Source: Elusimicrobiota bacterium
Lineage (GTDB): Bacteria; Elusimicrobiota; Elusimicrobia; F11
DNA: 64,000 nt
Reading direction: 5' to 3'
NCBI GenBank assembly: GCA_022072025.1
Contig: JAJVIP010000017.1
Location: 53,462-117,461, forward strand
The notes below the pieces were generated by a model. The model was not told the DNA's origin, searched no databases, and saw only the letters and a list, made by a program, of their open reading frames with translations. The translations under genes were made by a program, and so were the position numbers. Shown one piece after another: positions 2,966 to 56,300 of this stretch (its first letter is position 1; the number at the start of each line of letters is the position of its first letter).

Positions 2966-3106
2966 ATAAACCGGGATAACCCGCAGATTACGGCCAGCGA
3001 GCGCGAACTCCCAAGAAACACTTAAACAACGTGCTTGATCGCTTTTATCAGCCCGATCAAGGAAGCGTCATCGGGCTGACCATCGCCATAACCTGGGGCG
3101 ACCCGT

Positions 3107-3210
3107 ACATCCGCCATCCACATGCGCATGCTTCTCACCCTACTGACATTGGGCGCCGGTCAAATCGGCTGCAAGAAAAAATCAAGCAACAACACCAGCT
3201 CGGGCGGGGG
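3107..3210 (+). repeat. Copy 2 of the 104-bp lipoprotein 5' cassette
   Basis: About 97% identical to 1778..1881. The in-frame TRTSAIH remnant upstream of the ATG shows the duplication extends beyond the new start. Confidence 0.85.
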
Positions 3211-3859
3211 TGTGCCTGTAGAGCCAGCCCCAATCAATCCCAACCCAACCGCGCCCCAACAAACATTGACTGTCACAAAAAGCGGAAATGGAACGGGCAC
3301 AGTGACATCAAACCCGGCGGGTATCGATTGCGGGGGAGACTGTTCGGAAAATTACAATTACAACTCCGTGGTGACATTGGCGCAAGCCCAGCAAACCGGA
3401 TATTTCACAGGTTGGTCTGGCGCCTGCAGCGGCGATAAGCAGTGCAGCGTCACCATGAGTGAGGTTAAGAATGTCGGAGCAGCATTTGAAAATGTCAGCG
3501 TCAATGGGGATTATTGTCAATCTAGCGCGGGCTTGATCTTTTGTTTTTTTGTCCGATCCAATGCCGTGGTTCAAGTGGCCATGGGGCCGAACTCATCCAA
3601 TATATGCCGTTTATATTTCTACTCTGGAAATACGATCACCAATCGATCGTTTAATGTTGATACAGGAACCGTCAAATTTTCAGGAGATTTCTTGTCGGCA
3701 TATCGAGTCGCTGGACATTTCAACGGGAATTGTTCTTTGCTCTCAACCAATTCTTTTGATTTTGAGACCACTCGACCAACAGGAAGTGTTTCAGGCGCGT
3801 CAGCCATGAGCGAGCGGTCTATGTTTGAAGCGATACCCTACGACCCCGAAGCGAAATAG
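3122..3859 (+). CDS. Lipoprotein paralogue with an InlB B-repeat-like domain
   Basis: The first 30 aa are identical to the N-terminus of the 1763 gene. TKSGNGTGTVTSNPAGIDCGGDC...FTGWSGAC matches the InlB B-repeat pattern. Confidence 0.6.
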   Translation: MRMLLTLLTLGAGQIGCKKKSSNNTSSGGGVPVEPAPINPNPTAPQQTLTVTKSGNGTGTVTSNPAGIDCGGDCSENYNYNSVVTLAQAQQTGYFTGWSGACSGDKQCSVTMSEVKNVGAAFENVSVNGDYCQSSAGLIFCFFVRSNAVVQVAMGPNSSNICRLYFYSGNTITNRSFNVDTGTVKFSGDFLSAYRVAGHFNGNCSLLSTNSFDFETTRPTGSVSGASAMSERSMFEAIPYDPEAK

Positions 3860-3866
3860 CGGTTAA

Positions 3867-4077
3867 CCGGAATGATTCAGTTGAATCGTCGCCCCGGCAT
3901 GTTTGCTGGGCGTACCGATACATTGATTTTTATAATGCCGGTACCTACCGACCAAGATCATTATGGAACGGTACAGTCCAGAACAATAAATTATCATTGA
4001 GCTGGACGGCCAAAAGATTGCCGGGGCGACAGCGTCTCGTGCAGTACTTTAGGTGCGATTCAACTGAATCATTCCGG
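3867..4077. mobile_element. MITE-like intergenic repeat, copy A (about 211 bp), with 22-bp perfect terminal inverted repeats CCGGAATGATTCAGTTGAATCG
   Basis: TIRs sit at 3867-3888 and 4056-4077. The internal core GGCCAAAAGATTGCCGGGGCGACAG...GTGCAGTACTTTAGGT is shared with copy B. There is no coding capacity. Confidence 0.6.
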
Positions 4078-4100
4078 CTGATTTATTGTAAGTTCAGAAA

Positions 4101-5183
4101 ATGCCTGCTCCCTTAAAAAACCAACTCAACGAAGCCTTTGTGGATCGACTGGCCGGTTTGGTGTCGAAGGCGTCACCCCGGTTTTCGCCCACCGATTTCA
4201 AAAAAAGTTTATTGGGAGAGAAATGGCGCCGGTTGGAATTGAAGGAACGGGTGCGTGCCCTCTCGACTGCGCTGCACAATCACTTGAATGGATCCTATAA
4301 ACAGAAAATTTCCGTTTTGAAAAAAGTGGCCCCGCACATTTCCGGTCTGGGTGCCATGGTGTTTCCGGATTTTGTGGAAGTGTACGGCCGACATGATTTC
4401 CCTTTGTCCGTTCAAGCTATCAAGTTTTTTACTCCTTTCTTTAGTTCTGAATTCGCCGTCCGGCCTTTTATTCAGCGAGATCAGAAGAAAATGATGCGAA
4501 TCCTCCTCCAATGGTCGAAGGATAAAGACCCGCATGTGCGGAGGTTAGCGTCGGAAGGGTGCCGCCCCAGACTTCCCTGGGGGCTCAGGCTCAACGGTCT
4601 CATCGAGGATCCGTCTCCCATCCTGCCAATCCTTAAAAATTTAAAAGCGGACCCTTCACTCTACGTCCGGAAAAGCGTGGCCAACAATTTGAATGACCTA
4701 TCGAAAGACCATCCAAATCTGGTTATCTCCTTGGCTCGAGACTGGAAGGGAAAAAACATCCACACGGACTGGGTGCTCAAACAGGGGCTTCGAACGCTTT
4801 TAAAAAAAGGGCATTCCGTGGTTTTCGCCTTGTTTGATATGGAAGCGGCGGAAGACGTGGCAGTTCGGGGCTTACGGCTGAAACAATCCTCGTACGACAT
4901 CGGGGCAAGGCTGGAGTTTTCCTTTTCGCTTCTTAAGGAAGGAAAAGAAACCAAAAAACTCCGAGTGGATTACCTTATTCACTACCTCAAAAAAAACGGA
5001 ACCGCGCATAAAAAAGTTTTCAAATTAACCGAACGGTTGTTCGCTCCGGGACGACACCCGCTCTCTCGCCGACATTCGCTCAAACAAATGACCACGCGCA
5101 CCCATTACCCCGGCCAACATCAATTGGAGATCGCTGTGAACGGAGTGGTGAAAGCGAGCGCTTTCTTTCATTTAAATCCGTAA
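4101..5183 (+). CDS. DNA alkylation repair protein, HEAT-like repeat family (AlkD/YhaZ-like)
   Basis: 360 aa. The motif RRLASEGCRPRLPWG and overall length recall YhaZ-type DNA alkylation repair proteins. This is motif-level recall only. Confidence 0.45.
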   Translation: MPAPLKNQLNEAFVDRLAGLVSKASPRFSPTDFKKSLLGEKWRRLELKERVRALSTALHNHLNGSYKQKISVLKKVAPHISGLGAMVFPDFVEVYGRHDFPLSVQAIKFFTPFFSSEFAVRPFIQRDQKKMMRILLQWSKDKDPHVRRLASEGCRPRLPWGLRLNGLIEDPSPILPILKNLKADPSLYVRKSVANNLNDLSKDHPNLVISLARDWKGKNIHTDWVLKQGLRTLLKKGHSVVFALFDMEAAEDVAVRGLRLKQSSYDIGARLEFSFSLLKEGKETKKLRVDYLIHYLKKNGTAHKKVFKLTERLFAPGRHPLSRRHSLKQMTTRTHYPGQHQLEIAVNGVVKASAFFHLNP

Positions 5184-5227
5184 AGACCCTCGCCACTTGA
5201 GCCGCCGATTATTTTTGGCGACACATC

Positions 5228-5950
5228 TTATTGATATCGGCGACGGAAATGGTTGAGGCGGATTCTGACCAGATCCAAGAACATGCGGGTGGAATCTCTA
5301 AAAAAACGAACGCGGGTGAAGGGGGAATCAATCCAAGTGACGGGGGCTTCGATAATTCGAAATCCTTTTAATTGGGCGATAAACAAGACCTCGACATCGA
5401 ACCCAAACCGGGAAATGGTTTGCCTGGAAAAAATTTCTTGAGCGGCCTGAGCGGTAAAAAGTTTAAAACCGCATTGGGTATCGATAAATCCACGCAGCGT
5501 TAGGCACCGCACCAACACACTAAAGATCCGCCCCGCCGCCTCTCGAAAAAAAGGCTGACGTTTTTCAATGCGGCAACCTTTCACTCGGCGAGATCCAATC
5601 ACCACATCCGCCCTGTAGGAGAGGAATTTTTCAAGTTCTTCAATGGGGGTTGACAAATCGGCGTCGGAAAAGAGTCGGTGGTCGCCTCTCGCCACCAACA
5701 TTCCTTTTTTGACCGCCGCCCCTTTCCCCAGGTTTTCAGGTTGCATGATCAAGCGAAAACGGGGATGTTTTTGGGCAAAGGTTTGCACGATTTTGGGGGT
5801 GTGATCGCTGGAGCCATCATCCACCACGATAACCTCCGATGAATAGGACTGTTGGTTTAAATATTGGGCTATTTTCTCTAAGGTGGGCAAAATTCGCTTT
5901 TCTTCATTCAGCGCGGGAATTATGATTGAAATGAGCACCGGTCTCTCCAA
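5228..5950 (-). CDS. Family 2 glycosyltransferase (dolichyl-phosphate mannosyl/glucosyltransferase-like)
   Basis: IIIPALNEE...VIVVDDGSSDHT...DADL carries the GT2 DxD signatures. Confidence 0.8.
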   Translation of the reverse strand: MERPVLISIIIPALNEEKRILPTLEKIAQYLNQQSYSSEVIVVDDGSSDHTPKIVQTFAQKHPRFRLIMQPENLGKGAAVKKGMLVARGDHRLFSDADLSTPIEELEKFLSYRADVVIGSRRVKGCRIEKRQPFFREAAGRIFSVLVRCLTLRGFIDTQCGFKLFTAQAAQEIFSRQTISRFGFDVEVLFIAQLKGFRIIEAPVTWIDSPFTRVRFFRDSTRMFLDLVRIRLNHFRRRYQ

Positions 5951-5993
5951 TTTGGATCTTGCATGAGGGAAGCTTACCCCTTAAACTACTTTC

Positions 5994-6419
5994 ATGACAG
6001 GCTCGGATCTAAATACAAATAAAACTGTGCTTGTTGTAGACGATGACGAATCGGTTCTTTCCTTTCTGGCATTCTCTTTAAAAAATGATGGCTTTTCCGT
6101 CTTAGAAGCACGCGACGCCGAACGCGGTTTGAAGCTGCTCAAAACCCAAAAACCTGACATTATTCTTCTCGACATCATGCTTCCCAAAATGGATGGGTTT
6201 AAAATGTGCAAAACTCTCCGACAGATCCCCGGCATGGTAACCACTCCCGTTTTATTCATCACCGCCTATGCCGACCCCACCAGCTTGGACAAAACTCAAG
6301 CCGCCGGAGCCCAAGGGCTCATAGAAAAGCCCATCATGTACAGCGAACTTTTGGTCCAATTATTGGACGCCCTGGAAGGACGGTTCGCGCTTCCAACCCG
6401 CCTCCGCTTCGCCGCTTAA
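5994..6419 (+). CDS. Single-domain response regulator (CheY-like receiver)
   Basis: VLVVDDDESV...IILLDIMLPKMDG...LFITA covers the full receiver motif set. No output domain. Confidence 0.8.
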   Translation: MTGSDLNTNKTVLVVDDDESVLSFLAFSLKNDGFSVLEARDAERGLKLLKTQKPDIILLDIMLPKMDGFKMCKTLRQIPGMVTTPVLFITAYADPTSLDKTQAAGAQGLIEKPIMYSELLVQLLDALEGRFALPTRLRFAA

Positions 6420-6478
6420 ACCTCACTCGACACAATCGCTCCTCTCCCAAAATTCCTCAGATATGCTAATTAAGCCCC

Positions 6479-6856
6479 ATGCCTCTCGACAAATCACATA
6501 CCTATGTCTTCCGAATGGGATCGGATAACCAAATACGGCTTTTTTGGGACGGCTCATTTTGGCAATATGAATTCCTGGCGGGGGGAGTTCTCTTTGATCA
6601 ATTGACCTGCCATGACGAAAACGAACTTGAAGGAGCGGTGACGGTCCACGGTCTCACTCTTGAAAAATTTTCAATTGATCATGACCAAGCCAGCGCAGAG
6701 TACAGTGAAAAAATTAAAACCAAATTGGCCCAATTAACTGCGAATAACATTCACCCCTGTCCCAAACATGGGCTTATTTCAAAAAACAGCGATGGCAGTT
6801 GCGAGGCTTGCCTCAACATTGATTATCCCGATGATCACAAAGGAACAGAAGGCTGA
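6479..6856 (+). CDS. Hypothetical protein with a C-terminal Cys-rich segment (CPKHG...CEAC)
   Basis: 125-aa ORF. No recognised domain. Confidence 0.3.
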   Translation: MPLDKSHTYVFRMGSDNQIRLFWDGSFWQYEFLAGGVLFDQLTCHDENELEGAVTVHGLTLEKFSIDHDQASAEYSEKIKTKLAQLTANNIHPCPKHGLISKNSDGSCEACLNIDYPDDHKGTEG

Positions 6857-6859
6857 AGG

Positions 6860-7723
6860 ATGAAAAGAGTTCTTTTCATTTTGGCCGTCGCAATTCTGGT
6901 TATCAAAGAAACCGCGCAGGCGCGGCCCTTGCTTGTCGAAGAAGTCTCGACTGTTGGGAAAAAATCATTTGAAACCACCATCTCATTCTCACATCGGATC
7001 GATCAATTCAACACCGCCCCTCAGGTGACCTATGAAACATTTCAACTGCCCCTCACGTTGCGCCTGGGTCTTTCAAAATCTTCTGAATTTGGTTTCGATT
7101 TCCAATACATTCACCAAAAACTGAAACAAGGATCTGCAGAATATTCAGGGAGCATCAATGGCCGATTTTCACCTTTCGTTAAAATTGCTCCTTGGAAATT
7201 ATTGGCTTTAAAATTTCTTTATCATCCCAGCACTCCGGAAGAAACCGAACAGGAACTTCAAGTGGCGACCGGCGAGGATTTTGAAGCCATCGCGTTATTC
7301 CAAATCCCCACGAAGTGGCCATTAACGTTCAATATTGGGTATTTAACTCGAGGAAGGTACAACACCAAATTCGGAGTTCAAAACGGGCCCATCTATGGCG
7401 TGGATCCCGGGAATATTTTTGAGTCCAAACTGAGCCTCGAAGTTCCGCTCAAATTTAACCTGTCTTTGTTAACCGAAACCGCTTATTACAACAGCCAAGA
7501 TACCTATATTTCAAACCAGCAGGTTCCCAGTTCAGCGGCTGAAGCGATGGACGTTTTGCTGGGACTCAATTGGGCCTACAAGGGATGGAATATTGGATCG
7601 GGTGTGGCCTGGGGCTTGTTGGAAGAGAAATACACCAGCTTTAATTTGGAAAGGGGGGCGGGCGATGTCATGTATAAACTGAATATTGGCTACAAATTAT
7701 CCCCCAGGAACCCAACGAAATGA
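6860..7723 (+). CDS. Hypothetical secreted protein, possibly an outer-membrane beta-barrel
   Basis: Signal peptide MKRVLFILAVAILVIKETAQA. Alternating hydrophobic pattern. Confidence 0.4.
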   Translation: MKRVLFILAVAILVIKETAQARPLLVEEVSTVGKKSFETTISFSHRIDQFNTAPQVTYETFQLPLTLRLGLSKSSEFGFDFQYIHQKLKQGSAEYSGSINGRFSPFVKIAPWKLLALKFLYHPSTPEETEQELQVATGEDFEAIALFQIPTKWPLTFNIGYLTRGRYNTKFGVQNGPIYGVDPGNIFESKLSLEVPLKFNLSLLTETAYYNSQDTYISNQQVPSSAAEAMDVLLGLNWAYKGWNIGSGVAWGLLEEKYTSFNLERGAGDVMYKLNIGYKLSPRNPTK

Positions 7724-8493
7724 CTTTCAACAATCTCGCAAGGAATGGATTTTTTCTGGCGCTATTGGGTGGAGGTCTCCTCTCCTGCCAAAAAAAGGAC
7801 GAACCCAATAAAATTTTGGACCCTCTGCCCCTTAATTCAACTCAAACTTGCGTGCCCGGACAATTGGGGCAAGCTTGGTTTGTCATGAAACGAGATTGTT
7901 TAAAGGTTTTGATTCCGGTCATCAATCTAACCACCATCCCCAATTCCAGTTTTCCACAGGTCTCCGGCCCTGATGCAATGTCTCAATACACCTTTCAAAC
8001 CTCTGGCGATCGATATGGGACAGCGACCTATACCATTCGCTTCTATAATGAGAGCGGCGTTGTAATTGACCCTATTTTGACCAATACCTCCACTTCCACA
8101 CTCAAAAGTATAACTGTTCAAGTTGTTGGGGGGTCTTCAAAAGTCACCTACACCGAAGCTCTGACCTTGACGTTCGAAACAGCGGGTTTGCTCAGTTCCC
8201 ATTTACGGTTAACAGGAACTTCTTCGATCAGTGACAATCCAGTCACGAACACCCTTAACTTTACATTCTCCTTACCGGGCCCCAGAGTCGCCTTTGAAGG
8301 CTTAATTGACGGGGAGGTAACTGCAACTGGAACGGGGCCCAACTCACAAACCACCGCACTAAACCTCACTTTTTACGCGGATCATACCGCCAATGGAAGC
8401 ATTGCCTGGGAAGATTTAAGTGGGGGAATTCACTATCAAGACAATGGCGTGGGATATGTCGTCACCAATCTCTTTAGGCTTTTACTGGAATAA
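7720..8493 (+). CDS. Hypothetical lipoprotein
   Basis: Lipobox LLSC near the N-terminus. Start overlaps the upstream stop (ATGA). Thr/Ser-rich. Confidence 0.4.
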   Translation: MTFNNLARNGFFLALLGGGLLSCQKKDEPNKILDPLPLNSTQTCVPGQLGQAWFVMKRDCLKVLIPVINLTTIPNSSFPQVSGPDAMSQYTFQTSGDRYGTATYTIRFYNESGVVIDPILTNTSTSTLKSITVQVVGGSSKVTYTEALTLTFETAGLLSSHLRLTGTSSISDNPVTNTLNFTFSLPGPRVAFEGLIDGEVTATGTGPNSQTTALNLTFYADHTANGSIAWEDLSGGIHYQDNGVGYVVTNLFRLLLE

Positions 8494-8500
8494 TTAACCT

Positions 8501-8686
8501 GAATAATTCGGTTGAACAGCCATTACCGTCTATCAACAATGAATATTTTAGTGCCGTCATCCCGGCATGCTTTCTGGCCGGGATCCAGGTTTTCTTCATG
8601 GGGAAAACCTGGGCCCCGGCCAAAAGATTGCCGGGGCGACAGTGTCTTGTGCAGTACTTTTAGGTACGCTTCAACTGAATTATTTG
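8501..8686. mobile_element. MITE-like intergenic repeat, copy B (about 186 bp), with imperfect TIRs GAATAATTCGGTTGAAC / GCTTCAACTGAATTATT
   Basis: Shares the 70-bp core GGCCAAAAGATTGCCGGGGCGACAG(T/C)GTCT(T/C)GTGCAGTACTTT(T)AGGT with copy A. Contains a CCCCGGC-N9-GCCGGGG hairpin. Confidence 0.6.
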
Positions 8687-8709
8687 AGTTAACCTTCCTG
8701 GTCTTCTTT

Positions 8710-8738
8710 TGTGGATACTGTGGATAACTCTGTGGAGA
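8710..8738 (+). promoter_or_regulatory. Three direct repeats TGTGGATA / TGTGGATA / TGTGGAGA, directly followed 4 bp downstream by a sigma70-like -35 TTGACG, upstream of the cyclase gene
   Basis: Read directly. Spacing between repeats is 9 and 12 bp. A candidate transcription-factor binding array. Confidence 0.35.
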
Positions 8739-8842
8739 AAGGTCTTGACGGGTTTCCCTATGAAAGGTATGAATTGATGTTCCATTTTTATTTTAGCGTT
8801 TGAATTGGTGACAACTTAACCCTCAGACAGGAGACCCCCTCC

Positions 8843-34149: not shown

Positions 34150-34761
34150 TTAAGAAATTTTTATTTGATTGGATTGTGACTTGAGCTCGGCAACGGCCTG
34201 ATCGAGTTTATCGGCTTGGGCAATATTTCCTGAAGATCGTAATTCCTTAGAAATCCCTTCGACTTTATTCAAGGTACCCTCTCGCGCCTCTCGTTCTTTT
34301 TTTATTTTACTTCGGAGCCCCGCCAAACCTTGATTGAATTCATCGGCGAGATCCTGCATTTGATCATGTTTTCTCAAACGAACAAAAATAGACAAATTCC
34401 CTTCCTTCATTTCTTTGAATATCTTTTCAAAACGGTAAATGGGTCCCGCTAAAAAATGAGTCAAAAATAGAACAAGCCCAAATGTGAGTGCCATAATCAA
34501 AAATCCCGTTTGTCCAATAATGGAGGTAAGAGATTGAAGTTGAAGCACAGCATCCTCACCAGTGACAAATCCCGCCTCAATCATTTTATTCACCGCAACA
34601 CGGCTTTCCAGCCAAATAATCAGTGTCGACACCGAAAGGATGGCCAGCAATATAAAACTCAACTTAAATTGAAAGTGATGCTTAATAATATATTGCCCAA
34701 AAAAGCGGTTGACTCTTTTGGGCTGGCTGGATGAACTCACGCTGAGTTGTTCATTTGACAT
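34150..34761 (-). CDS. Small 2TM membrane protein with a HAMP-like domain (paralogue 2 of 3)
   Basis: FGQYIIKHHFQFK...AGPIYRFEKIFKEMKEGNLSIFVRLRKHDQM...KKEREA. Same architecture as the 34975 gene. Confidence 0.45.
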   Translation of the reverse strand: MSNEQLSVSSSSQPKRVNRFFGQYIIKHHFQFKLSFILLAILSVSTLIIWLESRVAVNKMIEAGFVTGEDAVLQLQSLTSIIGQTGFLIMALTFGLVLFLTHFLAGPIYRFEKIFKEMKEGNLSIFVRLRKHDQMQDLADEFNQGLAGLRSKIKKEREAREGTLNKVEGISKELRSSGNIAQADKLDQAVAELKSQSNQIKIS

Positions 34762-34974: not shown

Positions 34975-35580
34975 TTAAATATTGATTTGAGGAAGGTGGT
35001 CTTTGGATTTCCGGAACAATTTATCAAGTTGGTTGGCTTGCTCTGAAAATCCAAGATCTCGCCATTCCTTTACGAGACTGTTTGCTTTTATCCACAAAAC
35101 GTCATTGGCTTCACGTTCTTTTTTTAATTTGTTTCGAATGCTGGAAAGAGCCTGATTCAGGAGATCGGCGCTTTCCTTGAACTCATCATGTCCTCGCAAC
35201 CGAACATGGCCTCCTAAATTCCCATCGCGCATCTGTTCAAATGTCTTCTCAAAGCGAAAGATAGGACCTGCCACAAAATGAGAAAGAAAAAGAGTTAATG
35301 CAAAAATAACCACCGCTGCCAAAAAACCGGTTTTTCCTGTAATGCCCACAAGCAATTCAAGTTGTTCCTTTACGTCTCCTTGGACGGCGTTGGTATCAAT
35401 CAAGCGGCCTACAATCCAGTGACATTCGAGCCAGACAATACCGAGGAAAACCGCCATGACGCCGGACAGAACCAACGCACATTTGAATTGAAACCCATGC
35501 TTGATAATGTATTGCCCAAAAATCCGATGGGTTTTGCTCGGTTGAATAACGTGACTGTGTAATGTTCCTTCTTTTAACAT
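34975..35580 (-). CDS. Small 2TM membrane protein with a HAMP-like domain (paralogue 3 of 3)
   Basis: FGQYIIKHGFQFK...AGPIFRFEKTFEQMRDGNLGGHVRLRGHDEF...KKEREA. Collinear with paralogue 2. Confidence 0.45.
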   Translation of the reverse strand: MLKEGTLHSHVIQPSKTHRIFGQYIIKHGFQFKCALVLSGVMAVFLGIVWLECHWIVGRLIDTNAVQGDVKEQLELLVGITGKTGFLAAVVIFALTLFLSHFVAGPIFRFEKTFEQMRDGNLGGHVRLRGHDEFKESADLLNQALSSIRNKLKKEREANDVLWIKANSLVKEWRDLGFSEQANQLDKLFRKSKDHLPQINI

Positions 35581-42573: not shown

Positions 42574-43492
42574 GCAGGGCCGGCTCAGTCCGAGCCTTTT
42601 TTTTGTGGGACCCGATGGCGTGGGCAAGCGCCTTTGCGCCATTGAGCTTGCCAAATGTTTTGCCTGTGAAGAGCTTGCAGACCGAAAGATTGCCAGGGCG
42701 ACGAAAAAAATAAACGAATGGGTTAACAATGAATCTCTGCCGCGTTGCGGCAACTGCCAGGCATGCCGAAAAATTTCAGAAAACAACCACGCCGACGTGC
42801 TTCTCATCAACCGCGACCTACAGGCAACCATCCTCAAGGAAAAACTCGGAAGTCAAACTGCTATCAAGATTGATTCCATTCGTTATCTGAACAAATTTTT
42901 AAGTTTGAAACCCATCGAAAGTCAAAGACGCGTGGTGATTGTTGATGAGGCCCACCTCATGAACACCGAAGCCGCCAATGCCTTGCTGAAAATTTTGGAG
43001 GAACCCCCACAACAGGCTCAACTTATTTTATTGGCAAACAACGAACAGGCCCTGCCCTCCACCGTGCGTTCTCGTTGTGCCATCGTCAGATTTCGTTCCA
43101 TCCCCGTTAAAATTATGTCCGATTGGCTTGAAAGGGAACACGCGGTGTCAGAATCCAAGGCCATTGAACTGGCGGACCGGTCCGGAGGATCGTTTGAAAA
43201 GGCTCTGGCCTTCAAAGATGAAGACCGCCCCAGCACCGATTTATCGGATTACACGCTTGACGAATTTTTTACCCTTTTGGCTTCCACCAATTGGAAAAAA
43301 GAAGGGAGAAAAAGAGCCGAAACGGCTGTAACCCAGTTAATTGAGTCCAGTCAAAAAAAATTGGAGGAGGGAGACTTAAACCAAAGAGTTCGTCTTCAAA
43401 CTCTGCTCGACGCCCGGAAACATCTCGACAACAACGTGCCAGCCAAACTTGTGTTGGAAAATTTATACATCAAACTAGAAGGAGTCCGATGA
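42521..43492 (+). CDS. holB: DNA polymerase III delta-prime subunit
   Basis: FVGPDGVGK, zinc module CGNCQACRK, VVIVDEAHLMN and SRC arginine-finger motif. Confidence 0.8.
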   Translation: MEILGQPFVLHYLNEGLRQGRLSPSLFFVGPDGVGKRLCAIELAKCFACEELADRKIARATKKINEWVNNESLPRCGNCQACRKISENNHADVLLINRDLQATILKEKLGSQTAIKIDSIRYLNKFLSLKPIESQRRVVIVDEAHLMNTEAANALLKILEEPPQQAQLILLANNEQALPSTVRSRCAIVRFRSIPVKIMSDWLEREHAVSESKAIELADRSGGSFEKALAFKDEDRPSTDLSDYTLDEFFTLLASTNWKKEGRKRAETAVTQLIESSQKKLEEGDLNQRVRLQTLLDARKHLDNNVPAKLVLENLYIKLEGVR

Positions 43493-53300: not shown

Positions 53301-56300
53301 GTTTGGTGGTCACCACCCAAGGGCAAGTTAAAAATGGAAGTACCACAACAAAGAATTTAGATTTATCAGGCGCCACCTATTCGGTCTCCGGCCGCGTCAC
53401 CTCATCAGCCAGCGCGCCGTACACACTTTCCTTTATTGTGAACAGATCCACTCCCACCCAAGCCTATACACCTTCGGGACCAAGCACCCTTAATGCCAAT
53501 CGAATAACGGCTCAAAGACTTCGCAACCGAGACTTTAATGATGGGGGCGGTGGCCCCAGTGGTGGGATTTTCTATGACCCCAAAGAATCATTCATTGGGT
53601 TCTACAACGCCAATGGAGATTACAGCATCAATGGACTCGCGGAGGGTTCGTATCGCCTGACCACAAACGGGGAAATGGATGGCGATCTTTCCAATGGGAA
53701 TGAAATCAGCAAATTGAACAAGGTTTTGTACGTGGGTCAAAATATGACCGGACAAAATTTCAACCTGACCGATGGATACAAAATCAGCGGTACGATTCGC
53801 GTTGCCAGTGGCCAATCAGAATCAGGCCGGAGCTTGAATGTTCAGGCGAGAGATAGTGAAGGGTCAACGGTCGCCCAACAATTTATTTATCTCTCGGGGA
53901 CTTCCGCTGAATTCTCTTTGACCCACATTCCACCAGGACAATATGTGGTAACGGTTTCAGATACCTATCCGAGAAAATATTCCTCTAAGGATCTCCAAGT
54001 TGAAATTATTTCCTCCGATATTTCCAACAAAGAGATCAGCTTGCTTAATTCGGGAATTATCCGAGGAAAATTACAAGTTAAGAAGTCCGGTATTGTTATC
54101 TCGGCCGCCAACTACTCTCAATATCTTTCCGAATCTTTTCGAATTGAAGCGAGAAGCAACCCTTACATTCCAGGTGGTTTTGGCCGAGCTGAAAACCCGA
54201 TCATTGACGCGAATGGATATTTCAATATCGCGGTCAATCCAGGGACTTACGACGTGGTATTGGGATTGGATGGAGGGATATCGGATTCCGATATCGCGCA
54301 AGGAAAAAAAGCCTTCGTTAATGTGACCAAAAGCGCCATTTCAGTCTCAGGAGGAGAAATCAAGGATTTGGGCGTGATTCCCCTTGATGAAGGAATTGAA
54401 ATGACCGGGACGGTGGTGGACGCCTCCGGCACGCCGCTCTCCAATATTCGGGTCGAAGCTGAAAAATCAAACCAATCCGGTCACAACGATGAACTTTTGG
54501 AAACCTTCACTGATTCAAACGGAAAATATGTGATGAGAGGAATCGATTCAACGGGAGCGCGTTATTATCATTTCTTTGCCGCGCCTCGTCCTGATCCATT
54601 TGATCAACGTTTCAGTGGGGATACAACAGCCTCCCGCTATGCGGAATCGATCAAAGGGCCGATAGATACTCAGAGCGTAACCGAAGTCAATTTCACACTT
54701 TCTTTGGCCAATAGCGGGATCACTGCCACCATTACCACCGCCGACTCAGGCGTTCCCCAGGTTCCCTTTGGTGAATCGGGGTCTCTACCTGGGGCCATCG
54801 CGATCCTCAACAAACAACCTGAGATTCCCGTCGATAACCCACTGGGAAATATTGAAGAATTTGTGAGTCCCAGCGGCACCCTCGATGTTAAAGGGCTGGC
54901 AGCGGGTGTTTATGATCTCTACATCCTGGCCAAGGGATACGGCAGCTACTCAAAGAAAAACATTTCAGTTTCGGAAGGGGAAACCGTTGATTTGGGGACC
55001 ATTGTTCTTCCCACGGGATACACCCTTTCAGGAAAATTGACAAAACCCAATGGAGACCCGGTGACCACCTCTGATGTTGAGGACATCATCGCGGCCAGAA
55101 ATAATTTCAACGAAATAGCCATTGCCCAGTTGGATCAAGATGCCTCCAACAACATCATCAAATACTCCATATCGGGCATTCAACCCAACAAGGCCTACTC
55201 GATTATTGGATTTGGTCGATCGAATTCCGTGAGCAATTTGGCCTCCGATATCACGTTAACATCGGACACGGAATTGGATCTTACTTTTGAAGCACCCGCC
55301 CCGGGTGTACTCAACCAAATTGTCAAAAATAACGATGGTAGTTTCACCTTGTTATTCAAATTTGAAGAAACGTTGAGGAATTCGGACATCGACATTTCCG
55401 GAACAATTGGAATTAAAGACGACAATGAAATTCTTTCATTGACATCAGGAAACAGCGCTCTTGGAGAAACCACCATTTCATCGGACAGAAAGGAAGTATC
55501 GACCACCTACACACCTGCTGGAGGAGAAACTTCTTTCACCCTTCGTGTAACCGCCACATTTGTTTCCCAAGACAGCGAAACCGGCGCGAATCAAACCATC
55601 GACACCACCTTCACCTTTTATGCCGGCGTGTCCAAACAAAACAGCGCCACGGTGAGCAATGCCAGCGGAGGCGAGGTGGATTTGTCACAGGCCAACGATT
55701 CCACGAGTTTCACGGCTCCGGCCGGATGGCAAGGAGAAGATGAAGACAGCGCTCCGCAAGTCACCTTGAAGGCCGCAGCAACCCAAAGCGAGTTGGAGAC
55801 CTCGGCCTCCATGGTGGGATCCAAACTGGGCGCGTTGAGGGTGGCTGAGAAATTGGGGCTTCATGCCTACCCAAGTGAGATGGCCAAAGCCATGTCCAAA
55901 CTCAAAAAATTGGACGTTTCACCTCTCAGCTCGTTCTATGACATCTTTTTACCGGCGGGCGTCAGTCACTTTTTCCCTGAAGGAAAAGAAGCGCGACTCT
56001 GTTTGAGTTACGACTCCAGCGCCACTGATCCCTATTCGCTGAACGTTTATTATTACAACTCAACCACCGATGAATATTTATTGGAGAGCGAAAACAAATC
56101 GGTGGATACGGTTAACGAAAAAATTTGCGTCAGCATATCCCACGCGTCCATCTTCACTGTTTTAAATTCAAGCGTTTCCATCATCACCGGAGATGGTTAT
56201 TCCGGAGAGTTATCGATAATTAATTTCCCCAATCCGTTCAATTTAAAATCGAAAACCGTGACCCTTCAAAACCCCGGTTCCGCCAGCGCGTCACAGGTGA

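Follow-up and report, generated by a model that had tools for sequence, protein, structure and literature searches.

We analysed a stretch of 64,000 nucleotides from an uncultured Elusimicrobia bacterium (contig JAJVIP010000017.1 of assembly GCA_022072025.1), hereafter called the window, and examined two related short elements in it, copy A at positions 3867-4077 (211 nt) and copy B at 8498-8688 (191 nt). [quoted passage not shown] The members are ~165-215 bp in size and are bounded by terminal inverted repeats of ~22 bp with the consensus CCGGAATGATTCAGTTGAATCG, which usually abut TTAA, and at least 11 copies were found on 7 contigs of one Elusimicrobia metagenome-assembled genome (MAG; locus tags KCHDKBKB_, proteins MCG3205440-MCG3206194). 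Copies A and B show three of the features by which MITEs are recognized, namely a small size (less than ~500 bp), terminal inverted repeats and no transposase gene. Mobilization would have occurred in trans, through the product of a gene located in another part of the genome, and the most probable candidate is a transposase binding to the terminal repeats and using TTAA as its insertion site. A transposase seems the likeliest enzyme because the ends of copy A are perfect and because the repeat motif is kept in L009, a contig from a different organism, while the interior differs.

Terminal repeats, folding and modular organization

The left end of copy A (3867-3888) carries CCGGAATGATTCAGTTGAATCG and its right end (4056-4077) is the exact reverse complement, with 22 of 22 positions paired. 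The repeats of copy B, CCTGAATAATTCGGTTGAACAG at 8498-8519 on the left and its partner at 8667-8688 on the right, are degraded versions of the copy A repeat; they agree over AATAATTC.GTTGAA, and at 19 of 23 positions if the flanking TTAAC is counted. The original prediction, which was made from the letters of the window, had ascribed perfect 22-bp repeats to the element, and this holds for copy A but not for copy B. The motif GAATRATTCRGTTGAA was found at four sites only in the 64 kb, and these are the ends of copies A and B, whereas shuffled sequences contained 0.27 sites on average and never reached four.

When we compared the two copies, the right parts (4007-4073 in copy A and 8617-8684 in copy B) shared 68 nt with 91% identity, in agreement with the conserved core of ~70 bp that had been predicted, and GTGCAGTACTTT was common to both. 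Comparison of the whole elements using nhmmer gave E-values of 7.5e-15 and 2.9e-15, and no third copy was detected in the 64-kb window by the same method. A partial match of 21 nt at 42682-42702 lies within the DNA polymerase III delta' gene and was rejected as a chance similarity. TTAA abuts the left end of copy A at 3863-3866. Copy B has TTAA on both sides, at 8494-8497, directly after the stop codon at 8491-8493, and at 8689-8692, and the two sites are spaced 195 nt (65 codons) apart. Copy B, previously placed at 8501-8686, is better delimited as 8494-8692 with the TTAA flanks included.

Folding of both copies had been proposed together with the original prediction, and each copy folded into a long hairpin that was far more stable than its shuffled counterparts, with -105.2 kcal/mol for copy A (z = -9.5) and -89.5 kcal/mol for copy B (z = -8.0). 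Open reading frames (ORFs) in either copy are read-through frames only. No transposase domain was found in any ORF of the 64-kb window, as had been noticed before.

The structural examination revealed that the elements are mosaics of a limited set of modules. A complete set runs from one terminal repeat through an optional spacer of 35 nt, the left hairpin of the core, an optional AT-rich insert of 66 nt, the middle hairpin, the right hairpin of the core and an optional module of 27 nt to the other terminal repeat. The family core of ~86 nt is formed by two inverted units, each consisting of a hairpin between CGTCAT and ATCCAG, with the middle hairpin between them. Copy A contains the 66-nt insert and lacks the 35-nt spacer, while copy B and most other copies contain the spacer and lack the insert.

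In copy A, all modules of which are given on the plus strand, the core left arm GTCGCCCCGGCATGTTTGCTGG (3888-3909) follows the left terminal repeat, and its first 11 nt pair over a long range with 4020-4030. It is followed by the 66-nt insert (3910-3975), which is not in copy B, is present in the ENA metagenome contig L013, and is partly inverted in the copies of proteins P0018 and P0020. The middle hairpin GTCCAG...CTGGAC (3976-4007), the core right arm GGCCAAAAGATTGCCGGGGCGAC (4008-4030) and the optional module with GTGCAGTACTTT (4031-4055; 27 nt in copy B and missing from at least four other copies) complete the element before the right terminal repeat.

In copy B, the 35-nt spacer (8520-8554, plus strand), which is kept in all B-type copies and encodes the peptide ...ALKYSLLIDGNG on the opposite strand, leads to a first hairpin, CGTCAT-CCCGGC-atgctttctg-GCCGGG-ATCCAG (8555-8588, plus strand). 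The middle hairpin CCAGGTTTTC...GAAAACCTGG (8585-8612, plus strand) also occurs in L014 and L016, contigs from other organisms. The second hairpin (8608-8642) is inverted, lies on the minus strand and is a GTCGC variant, and the optional 27-nt module ACAGTGTCTTGTGCAGTACTTTTAGGT (8639-8665, plus strand) corresponds to nine codons, read as TKRTCTRRC in the protein P0001. The second hairpin contains the CCCCGGC-N9-GCCGGGG structure that the original prediction had assigned to the core of both copies. This structure was confirmed in copy B only; the GCCGGGGCGAC of copy A has a different pairing partner, GTCGCCCCGGC at 3888-3898, beside the left repeat.

The mosaic character is most obvious in P0018 (KCHDKBKB_02950) and P0020 (TolB), in which the N-terminal ~80 residues are encoded by hybrids of a B-type left half and an A-type right half. 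As compared with copy A, the segment CCAAGATCATTATGGAACGG is inverted in these two copies, suggesting that hairpin loops have been inverted within the family. If one TTAA is included, 168 nt and 195 nt are the common size classes; each is divisible by three, and the gap of 27 nt between them is the module holding GTGCAGTACTTT. The intergenic copy A (211 nt, or 215 nt with TTAA) is not a multiple of three.

Dispersal through the genome and copies within genes

Copies beyond the window were sought by comparing six-frame translations of the element with protein databases. They are known only as translations from the gene calls of one MAG, and their total is a lower bound, since a protein search makes visible only those copies that are overlapped by a called gene. 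The first six-frame query revealed element-encoded peptides in five annotated proteins of the KCHDKBKB_ MAG, an exhaustive profile search added the 4451-amino acid (aa) protein KCHDKBKB_02925, and a second six-frame query added three more proteins. The proteins of the window (KCHDKBKB_02161 to _02168, from a contig of 121,553 nt) share the locus-tag prefix, and therefore the dispersed copies belong to the same genome. One of the copies other than A and B lies elsewhere on the contig of the window and the rest are on six other contigs. Four copies are located inside genes, one forms the C-terminal tail of HypD, four are positioned just upstream of genes, and A and B are both intergenic, between genes of the same strand. 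The original prediction had left room for just two local copies without flanking direct repeats; given this dispersal and the TTAA/TTAA direct repeat around copy B, its MITE interpretation was upheld. Where genome DNA is not searchable, protein databases can thus be used for counting DNA repeats.

Two Logan contigs, L001 from SRR10609169 (window positions 4008-8523) and L002 from SRR10609165 (4008-5648), from two independent samples, were 100% identical to the window, and the organism was therefore present in both samples. Both contigs begin at 4008, the exact start of the core right arm of copy A, and the longer L001 ends at 8523 inside copy B. Such breaks inside the copies are what assembly graphs would show where a repeat is present many times, and they gave an indirect hint of dispersal. 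Family elements fragment short-read assemblies, as seen in L001 and L002. When the conserved core GCCGGGGCGACAGNGTCTNGTGCAG was used as an exact pattern, neither the GTDB genomes nor the JGI metagenomes contained a match. The closest GTDB genomes, as judged by FeoB, are Elusimicrobia MAGs with 62-73% identity in this protein and do not contain the element; in two such distant relatives, L004 and L005, the order of the lipoprotein and adenylate cyclase genes is kept and the element is absent.

The four copies inside ORFs are read in one identical element frame, ...LTG[M/N]IQLNR(TKRTCTRRC)RPGNLLAGAQVFPMKKTWIPARKHAGMTALKYSLLIDGNGRSTELFGL..., and add 65 aa to P0001 (CoaB) and 56 aa each to P0003, P0005 and P0010. 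With the HypD tail counted in, the genes holding a copy are coaB, hypD, KCHDKBKB_01431, _01732 and _02925. The coaB gene, which functions in CoA biosynthesis, is presumably essential. When we aligned P0001 with the CoaB structure 5int_A, residues 1-114 and 193-271 matched residues 20-132 and 126-208, respectively, leaving ~78 residues without counterpart between the aligned blocks. Removal of the 65 aa produced a single continuous DFP match at 1-173 with 171.9 bits, while the intact protein matched in two stretches with 168.9 bits.

The other protein-associated copies are located at gene edges. In HypD, residue 329 completes the domain, and the tail of 46 aa that comes after it is element-encoded, in a different frame. 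The N termini of TolB, two TolC-like proteins and KCHDKBKB_02950 begin with element-encoded residues; most likely, the starts of these four genes were called too far upstream and the element lies just 5' of each. Our results therefore flag these four starts in the MAG as probable mis-extensions.

One frame per orientation is free of stop codons in the family, and the reverse strand of copy B translates to the same peptide as the in-gene copies with a single stop. Several protein-embedded copies begin with LTG, which can be read as TTA-ACN-GGN. Since the sizes of 168 and 195 nt are multiples of three and a stop-free frame exists, in-phase copies keep the reading frame of the gene. Copies that landed in phase inside genes would leave the frame intact and persist as inserts of 56 or 65 aa, and we infer that the in-phase, stop-free copies are those that survive inside genes. 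The original prediction had described the element as non-coding, which is correct for copies A and B but not for the family, other members of which are read through in genes. It had also missed the open reading frame with its in-gene read-through, the mosaicism and the likeness of the core hairpins to NTS and SRM repeats, which is described below.

Core hairpins and comparison with known repeats

The Neisseria Transformation Sequence (NTS; consensus CGTCATTCCCGCGMAVGCGGGAATCYRG), in which dRS3 is included, is cleaved by SsnA, a nuclease of the GIY-YIG type that acts on single-stranded DNA; SRM repeats (Ssn-related motifs) are degenerate relatives of NTS that accompany ssnA homologues across several phyla, and Rickettsia is among the genomes rich in SRM (PMC11893778). 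The flanks of our core hairpins, CGTCAT...ATCCAG, are oriented as in the NTS consensus. When we searched the window with the strict NTS, SRM (HGTCWYN(0-2)YYVSBRHN(0-5)WNVSBRGN(0-2)RNCYNB) and dRS3 patterns, none matched, apart from a one-mismatch dRS3 match at 54377 that is at chance level. With only the loop limit relaxed, the SRM pattern matched the first hairpin of copy B (8555-8588) and the equivalent hairpins of L013 and L014; since the shuffled window also yields roughly one such match per 64 kb, the relaxed pattern is no proof alone.

A stronger argument for this likeness comes from a contig that was found through a different route and has a comparable architecture. L009, a JGI contig from an organism of 37% GC, was found solely through the pattern of paired terminal repeats. 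Its interior contains two inverted hairpins, TGTCATTCCCGCGAAGGCGGGAATCCAG, that match the strict SRM pattern with spacings like those of copy B, and these hairpins were not part of the scan query. The layout of terminal repeat, spacer, hairpin, centre, inverted hairpin, spacer and terminal repeat is thus present both in copy B and in the unrelated L009, in a different hairpin dialect. Among the further relatives, L013 shares the copy A insert and the core (nhmmer E = 1.6e-8), and L014 shares the core (E = 1.7e-14) with decayed ends. L016 and L017 match the strict SRM pattern, as does L009. We regard the SRM likeness and the architecture of L009 as a lead, and we did not file the family as a member of NTS/dRS3/SRM because the strict published patterns fail.

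Several other candidates were not accepted as members. L007, L008, L010 and L011 belong to a different family of long palindromes, in which the motif lies within arms of ~60 nt, and L006 and L012 share only the repeat motif. One canonical repeat match in viral contigs, inside a phage gene, is consistent with chance, and two further viral-contig scans gave no matches. The palindromes in L007 (104-303), L008 (35-230), L010 (1954-2153) and L011 (3191-3387), from JGI Ga0123355 and Ga0136643, are ~250 bp in size and nearly perfect, with outer ends TAATATATCCATCATCAGGAGCTTGCGAC, and were caught only because their arms contain ATTCTGTTGAAT; they look like another MITE family with variable centres. 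L006 (74-270 of IMG/VR UViG_3300009285_002882) holds an AT-rich element of ~215 bp whose inverted ends of 25 nt read GATGATTAA..TAATTCTGTTGAAA. The ATTCNGTTGAA motif is common to this element and the family, but its internal hairpin, TTCCCATG...CATGGGAA, is different, and it may be a distant relative.

Among known systems, the family is closest in behaviour to Rickettsia palindromic elements (RPEs) and closest in structure to ordinary bacterial MITEs. RPEs are palindromic repeats found in phase within genes, where their translation yields a peptide that is conserved (Ogata et al. 2000, 2002, as summarized in PMC10969869), and a 2024 review states that in-frame MITE fusions occur, with RPEs as the extreme (PMC10969869). 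Like RPEs, the elements are short multi-copy palindromes with an open frame, inserted in phase in unrelated housekeeping genes, to whose products they add a conserved peptide. The defining feature of RPEs, an in-phase palindrome that encodes a conserved peptide, was found in the coaB insertion and in three further same-frame copies. However, the Elusimicrobia family differs from RPEs in having clear terminal inverted repeats of 22 bp, flanking TTAA sites and modules that are optional, it belongs to another phylum, and only 4 of its 11 known copies are internal to genes; the likeness described here is one of behaviour. Our observations widen the range of palindromic elements that are translated in phase from Rickettsia to a free-living bacterium of a candidate phylum, with one copy within coaB.

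The family resembles bacterial MITEs such as Correia (CREE) of Neisseria, ERIC, QMITE1 of Coxiella and Nezha of cyanobacteria in its size below 300 bp, its terminal inverted repeats, the lack of a transposase gene, its dispersed and mostly intergenic copies, its folding into long hairpins and its occasional in-frame gene fusions (PMC10969869). It differs from them in its internal core, an NTS/SRM-like hairpin pair, and no parent insertion sequence (IS) was identified in the window. The flank is TTAA rather than the TA of Correia, and the terminal repeat presumably differs from that of Correia as well. A literature search found no report of such MITEs in Elusimicrobia, and one paper merely mentions both terms.

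The inverted hairpin pair echoes the NTS-ssnA-NTS arrangement. However, the stem of the Elusimicrobia hairpins is CCCGGC/GCCGGG with a loop of 10 nt, and terminal inverted repeats enclose the hairpins, a feature not described in the study of NTS and SRM (PMC11893778). No ssnA homologue was found among the ORFs of the window. The hairpin-based, modular and mosaic structure and the abundance in the genome also recall REP/BIME repeats with their Y1 transposase RAYT. REPs are extragenic repeats of 20-40 nt with a GT[AG]G head, while our units are 165-215 bp in size with terminal inverted repeats and four intragenic copies, and they do not fit the definition of REPs; no RAYT gene was seen in the window.

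MITEs, coding palindromes of the RPE kind and the NTS/SRM hairpins associated with Ssn are usually treated separately, and the anatomy of the family offers a concrete link among the three; if this link holds, the multiplication of hairpin repeats becomes testable. A more speculative extension, which we hold to be distinctly doubtful, is that the elements are gene-less miniature derivatives of a transposon-like unit that once carried an Ssn-type GIY-YIG nuclease, with a parent layout of terminal repeat, spacer, hairpin, ssnA, inverted hairpin, spacer and terminal repeat. This idea draws on copy B and L009, two unrelated organisms in which one terminal repeat motif surrounds a pair of inverted NTS/SRM hairpins in different dialects. 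If so, there would be evidence, for the first time, of NTS/SRM repeats spreading in the form of transposon-like units with terminal repeats at their borders, and of the ability of these units to settle within genes in phase, which would connect NTS/dRS3 of Neisseria, RPEs and classical MITEs.

Alternative explanations and genomic surroundings

Several observations weigh against a transposase-mobilized MITE-like family. A target duplication is clear in copy B only, and in copy A the TTAA on the left has no counterpart on the right, where the flank reads CTGA. Most protein-embedded copies have ends compatible with TTAA, and several do not. No full-length IS with the terminal repeats of the family was found in the window, and the core hairpins occur without recognizable terminal repeats in L014, L016 and L017. 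With respect to the copies inside genes, CoaB is the only case for which comparison with an independent homologue gave verification; for P0003 the domain match was no better after excision, and the PDB and Pfam comparisons gave no support for domain continuity in P0003 and P0005. The in-frame status also rests on the gene calls of a single MAG.

The missing target duplication of copy A and the cores without terminal repeats also speak for an explanation in which the spreading unit is the hairpin pair itself, an NTS/SRM- or REP/BIME-like mosaic that is generated or maintained by an enzyme acting on hairpins of single-stranded DNA, for example a GIY-YIG nuclease of the Ssn family or a REP-associated Y1 transposase, and the outer repeat is the outermost part of a long palindrome. 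This explanation, the main rival, which we consider possible but unlikely, is further favoured by the CGTCAT and ATCCAG flanks that the core hairpins share with the NTS cleaved by SsnA, by the two strict SRM matches of the same layout in L009, and by the mosaic modular structure with the inverted loop segment in P0018 and P0020. However, the strict SRM pattern is unmatched in the window and the relaxed one matches at about the rate seen in shuffles, no GIY-YIG or Y1 gene is present among the window ORFs, and the role described for Ssn is that of a nuclease modulating transformation, not that of a transposase (PMC11893778). The perfect 22-bp repeats of copy A, together with a repeat motif common to L009 despite its different hairpin dialect, argue rather for recognition of the ends. 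Two other mechanisms were also considered for the ends. An IS200/IS605-type insertion 3' of TTAAC is less likely, since the ends are true mutual inverted repeats and not separate subterminal hairpins, and an integron attC site was rejected since the order of the GTTRRRY and RYYYAAC boxes is not the one such a site requires.

The position of copies A and B raises the question of a selected function. As originally predicted, both are located just 3' of lipoprotein genes and start 8 nt or less from the stop codons: the gene at 3122-3859 (plus strand, lipobox IGC) ends 8 nt before copy A, and the stop codon of KCHDKBKB_02168 (7720-8493, plus strand, lipobox LLSC) abuts the TTAA of copy B. The copies might thus be functional modules, such as 3'-end RNA stabilizers, terminators or a repeated small RNA at lipoprotein genes. 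Their very stable folds and the known effect of ERIC and Correia MITEs on mRNA stability (PMC10969869) are consistent with such a role, but we judge it to be quite improbable, given that other copies lie in coaB, at the end of hypD and before tolB and tolC-like genes, with no common gene context, and that the orthologous intergenic regions of the relatives lack the element. The structured RNA or terminator alternative offered with the original prediction also found no support: at the gathering threshold, Rfam matched nothing on the elements and only a tRNA elsewhere in the window, an Rfam scan by E-value gave only sub-threshold matches of microRNA precursors to the element hairpin, and the search for intrinsic terminators (hairpin with T-run) gave weak internal matches only, 13 compared with 9.5 +/- 3.2 in shuffles. 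Under the MITE-like explanation, copies A and B would be intergenic insertions just past the lipoprotein stop codons, and, if transcribed together with these genes, as may be the case, would give the lipoprotein mRNAs a stable hairpin at their 3' ends. Finally, copies A and B, the only two in the 64-kb window, lie 4.6 kb apart in the same orientation, as would be seen after a local segmental duplication in a 5-kb region. Their module content differs, however, their flanking sequences are unrelated, and nine further copies are dispersed over the genome, by which a local duplication is refuted.

On the downstream side, copy A ends 23 nt before a HEAT-repeat YhaZ-like gene, and a gene for a 7TM-GAF adenylate cyclase lies 150 nt downstream of copy B. 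The remainder of the window contains housekeeping genes.

We also observed three DnaA-box-like nonamers in a row (TGTGGATAC, TGTGGATAA and TGTGGAGAA) at 8710-8739, 18 nt after copy B, between the lipoprotein and adenylate cyclase genes. They are reverse complements of TTATCCACA, and similar clusters are present in the orthologous intergenic regions of the two distant Elusimicrobia MAGs (L004, 1735-1765; L005, 6660-6790). The cluster may be a DnaA-regulated promoter or an origin-like site.

The lipoprotein gene preceding copy A and its neighbour at 1763-2965 share a 112-nt 5' segment with 96% identity (1770-1881 and 3099-3210). Signal peptide, lipobox and a Ser/Gly linker are all encoded in this segment, and the two lipoproteins differ in their remaining parts; in the gene at 3122-3859, the start codon of the first gene is lost and translation begins at a later ATG. 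Two adjacent ORFs on the minus strand, at 34150-34761 and 34975-35580, encode proteins of ~200 aa without Pfam match and lie in the part of the window with the lowest GC content (0.41). They share a 40-nt stretch with 85% identity (34664-34703 and 35483-35522) and are probably tandem paralogues.

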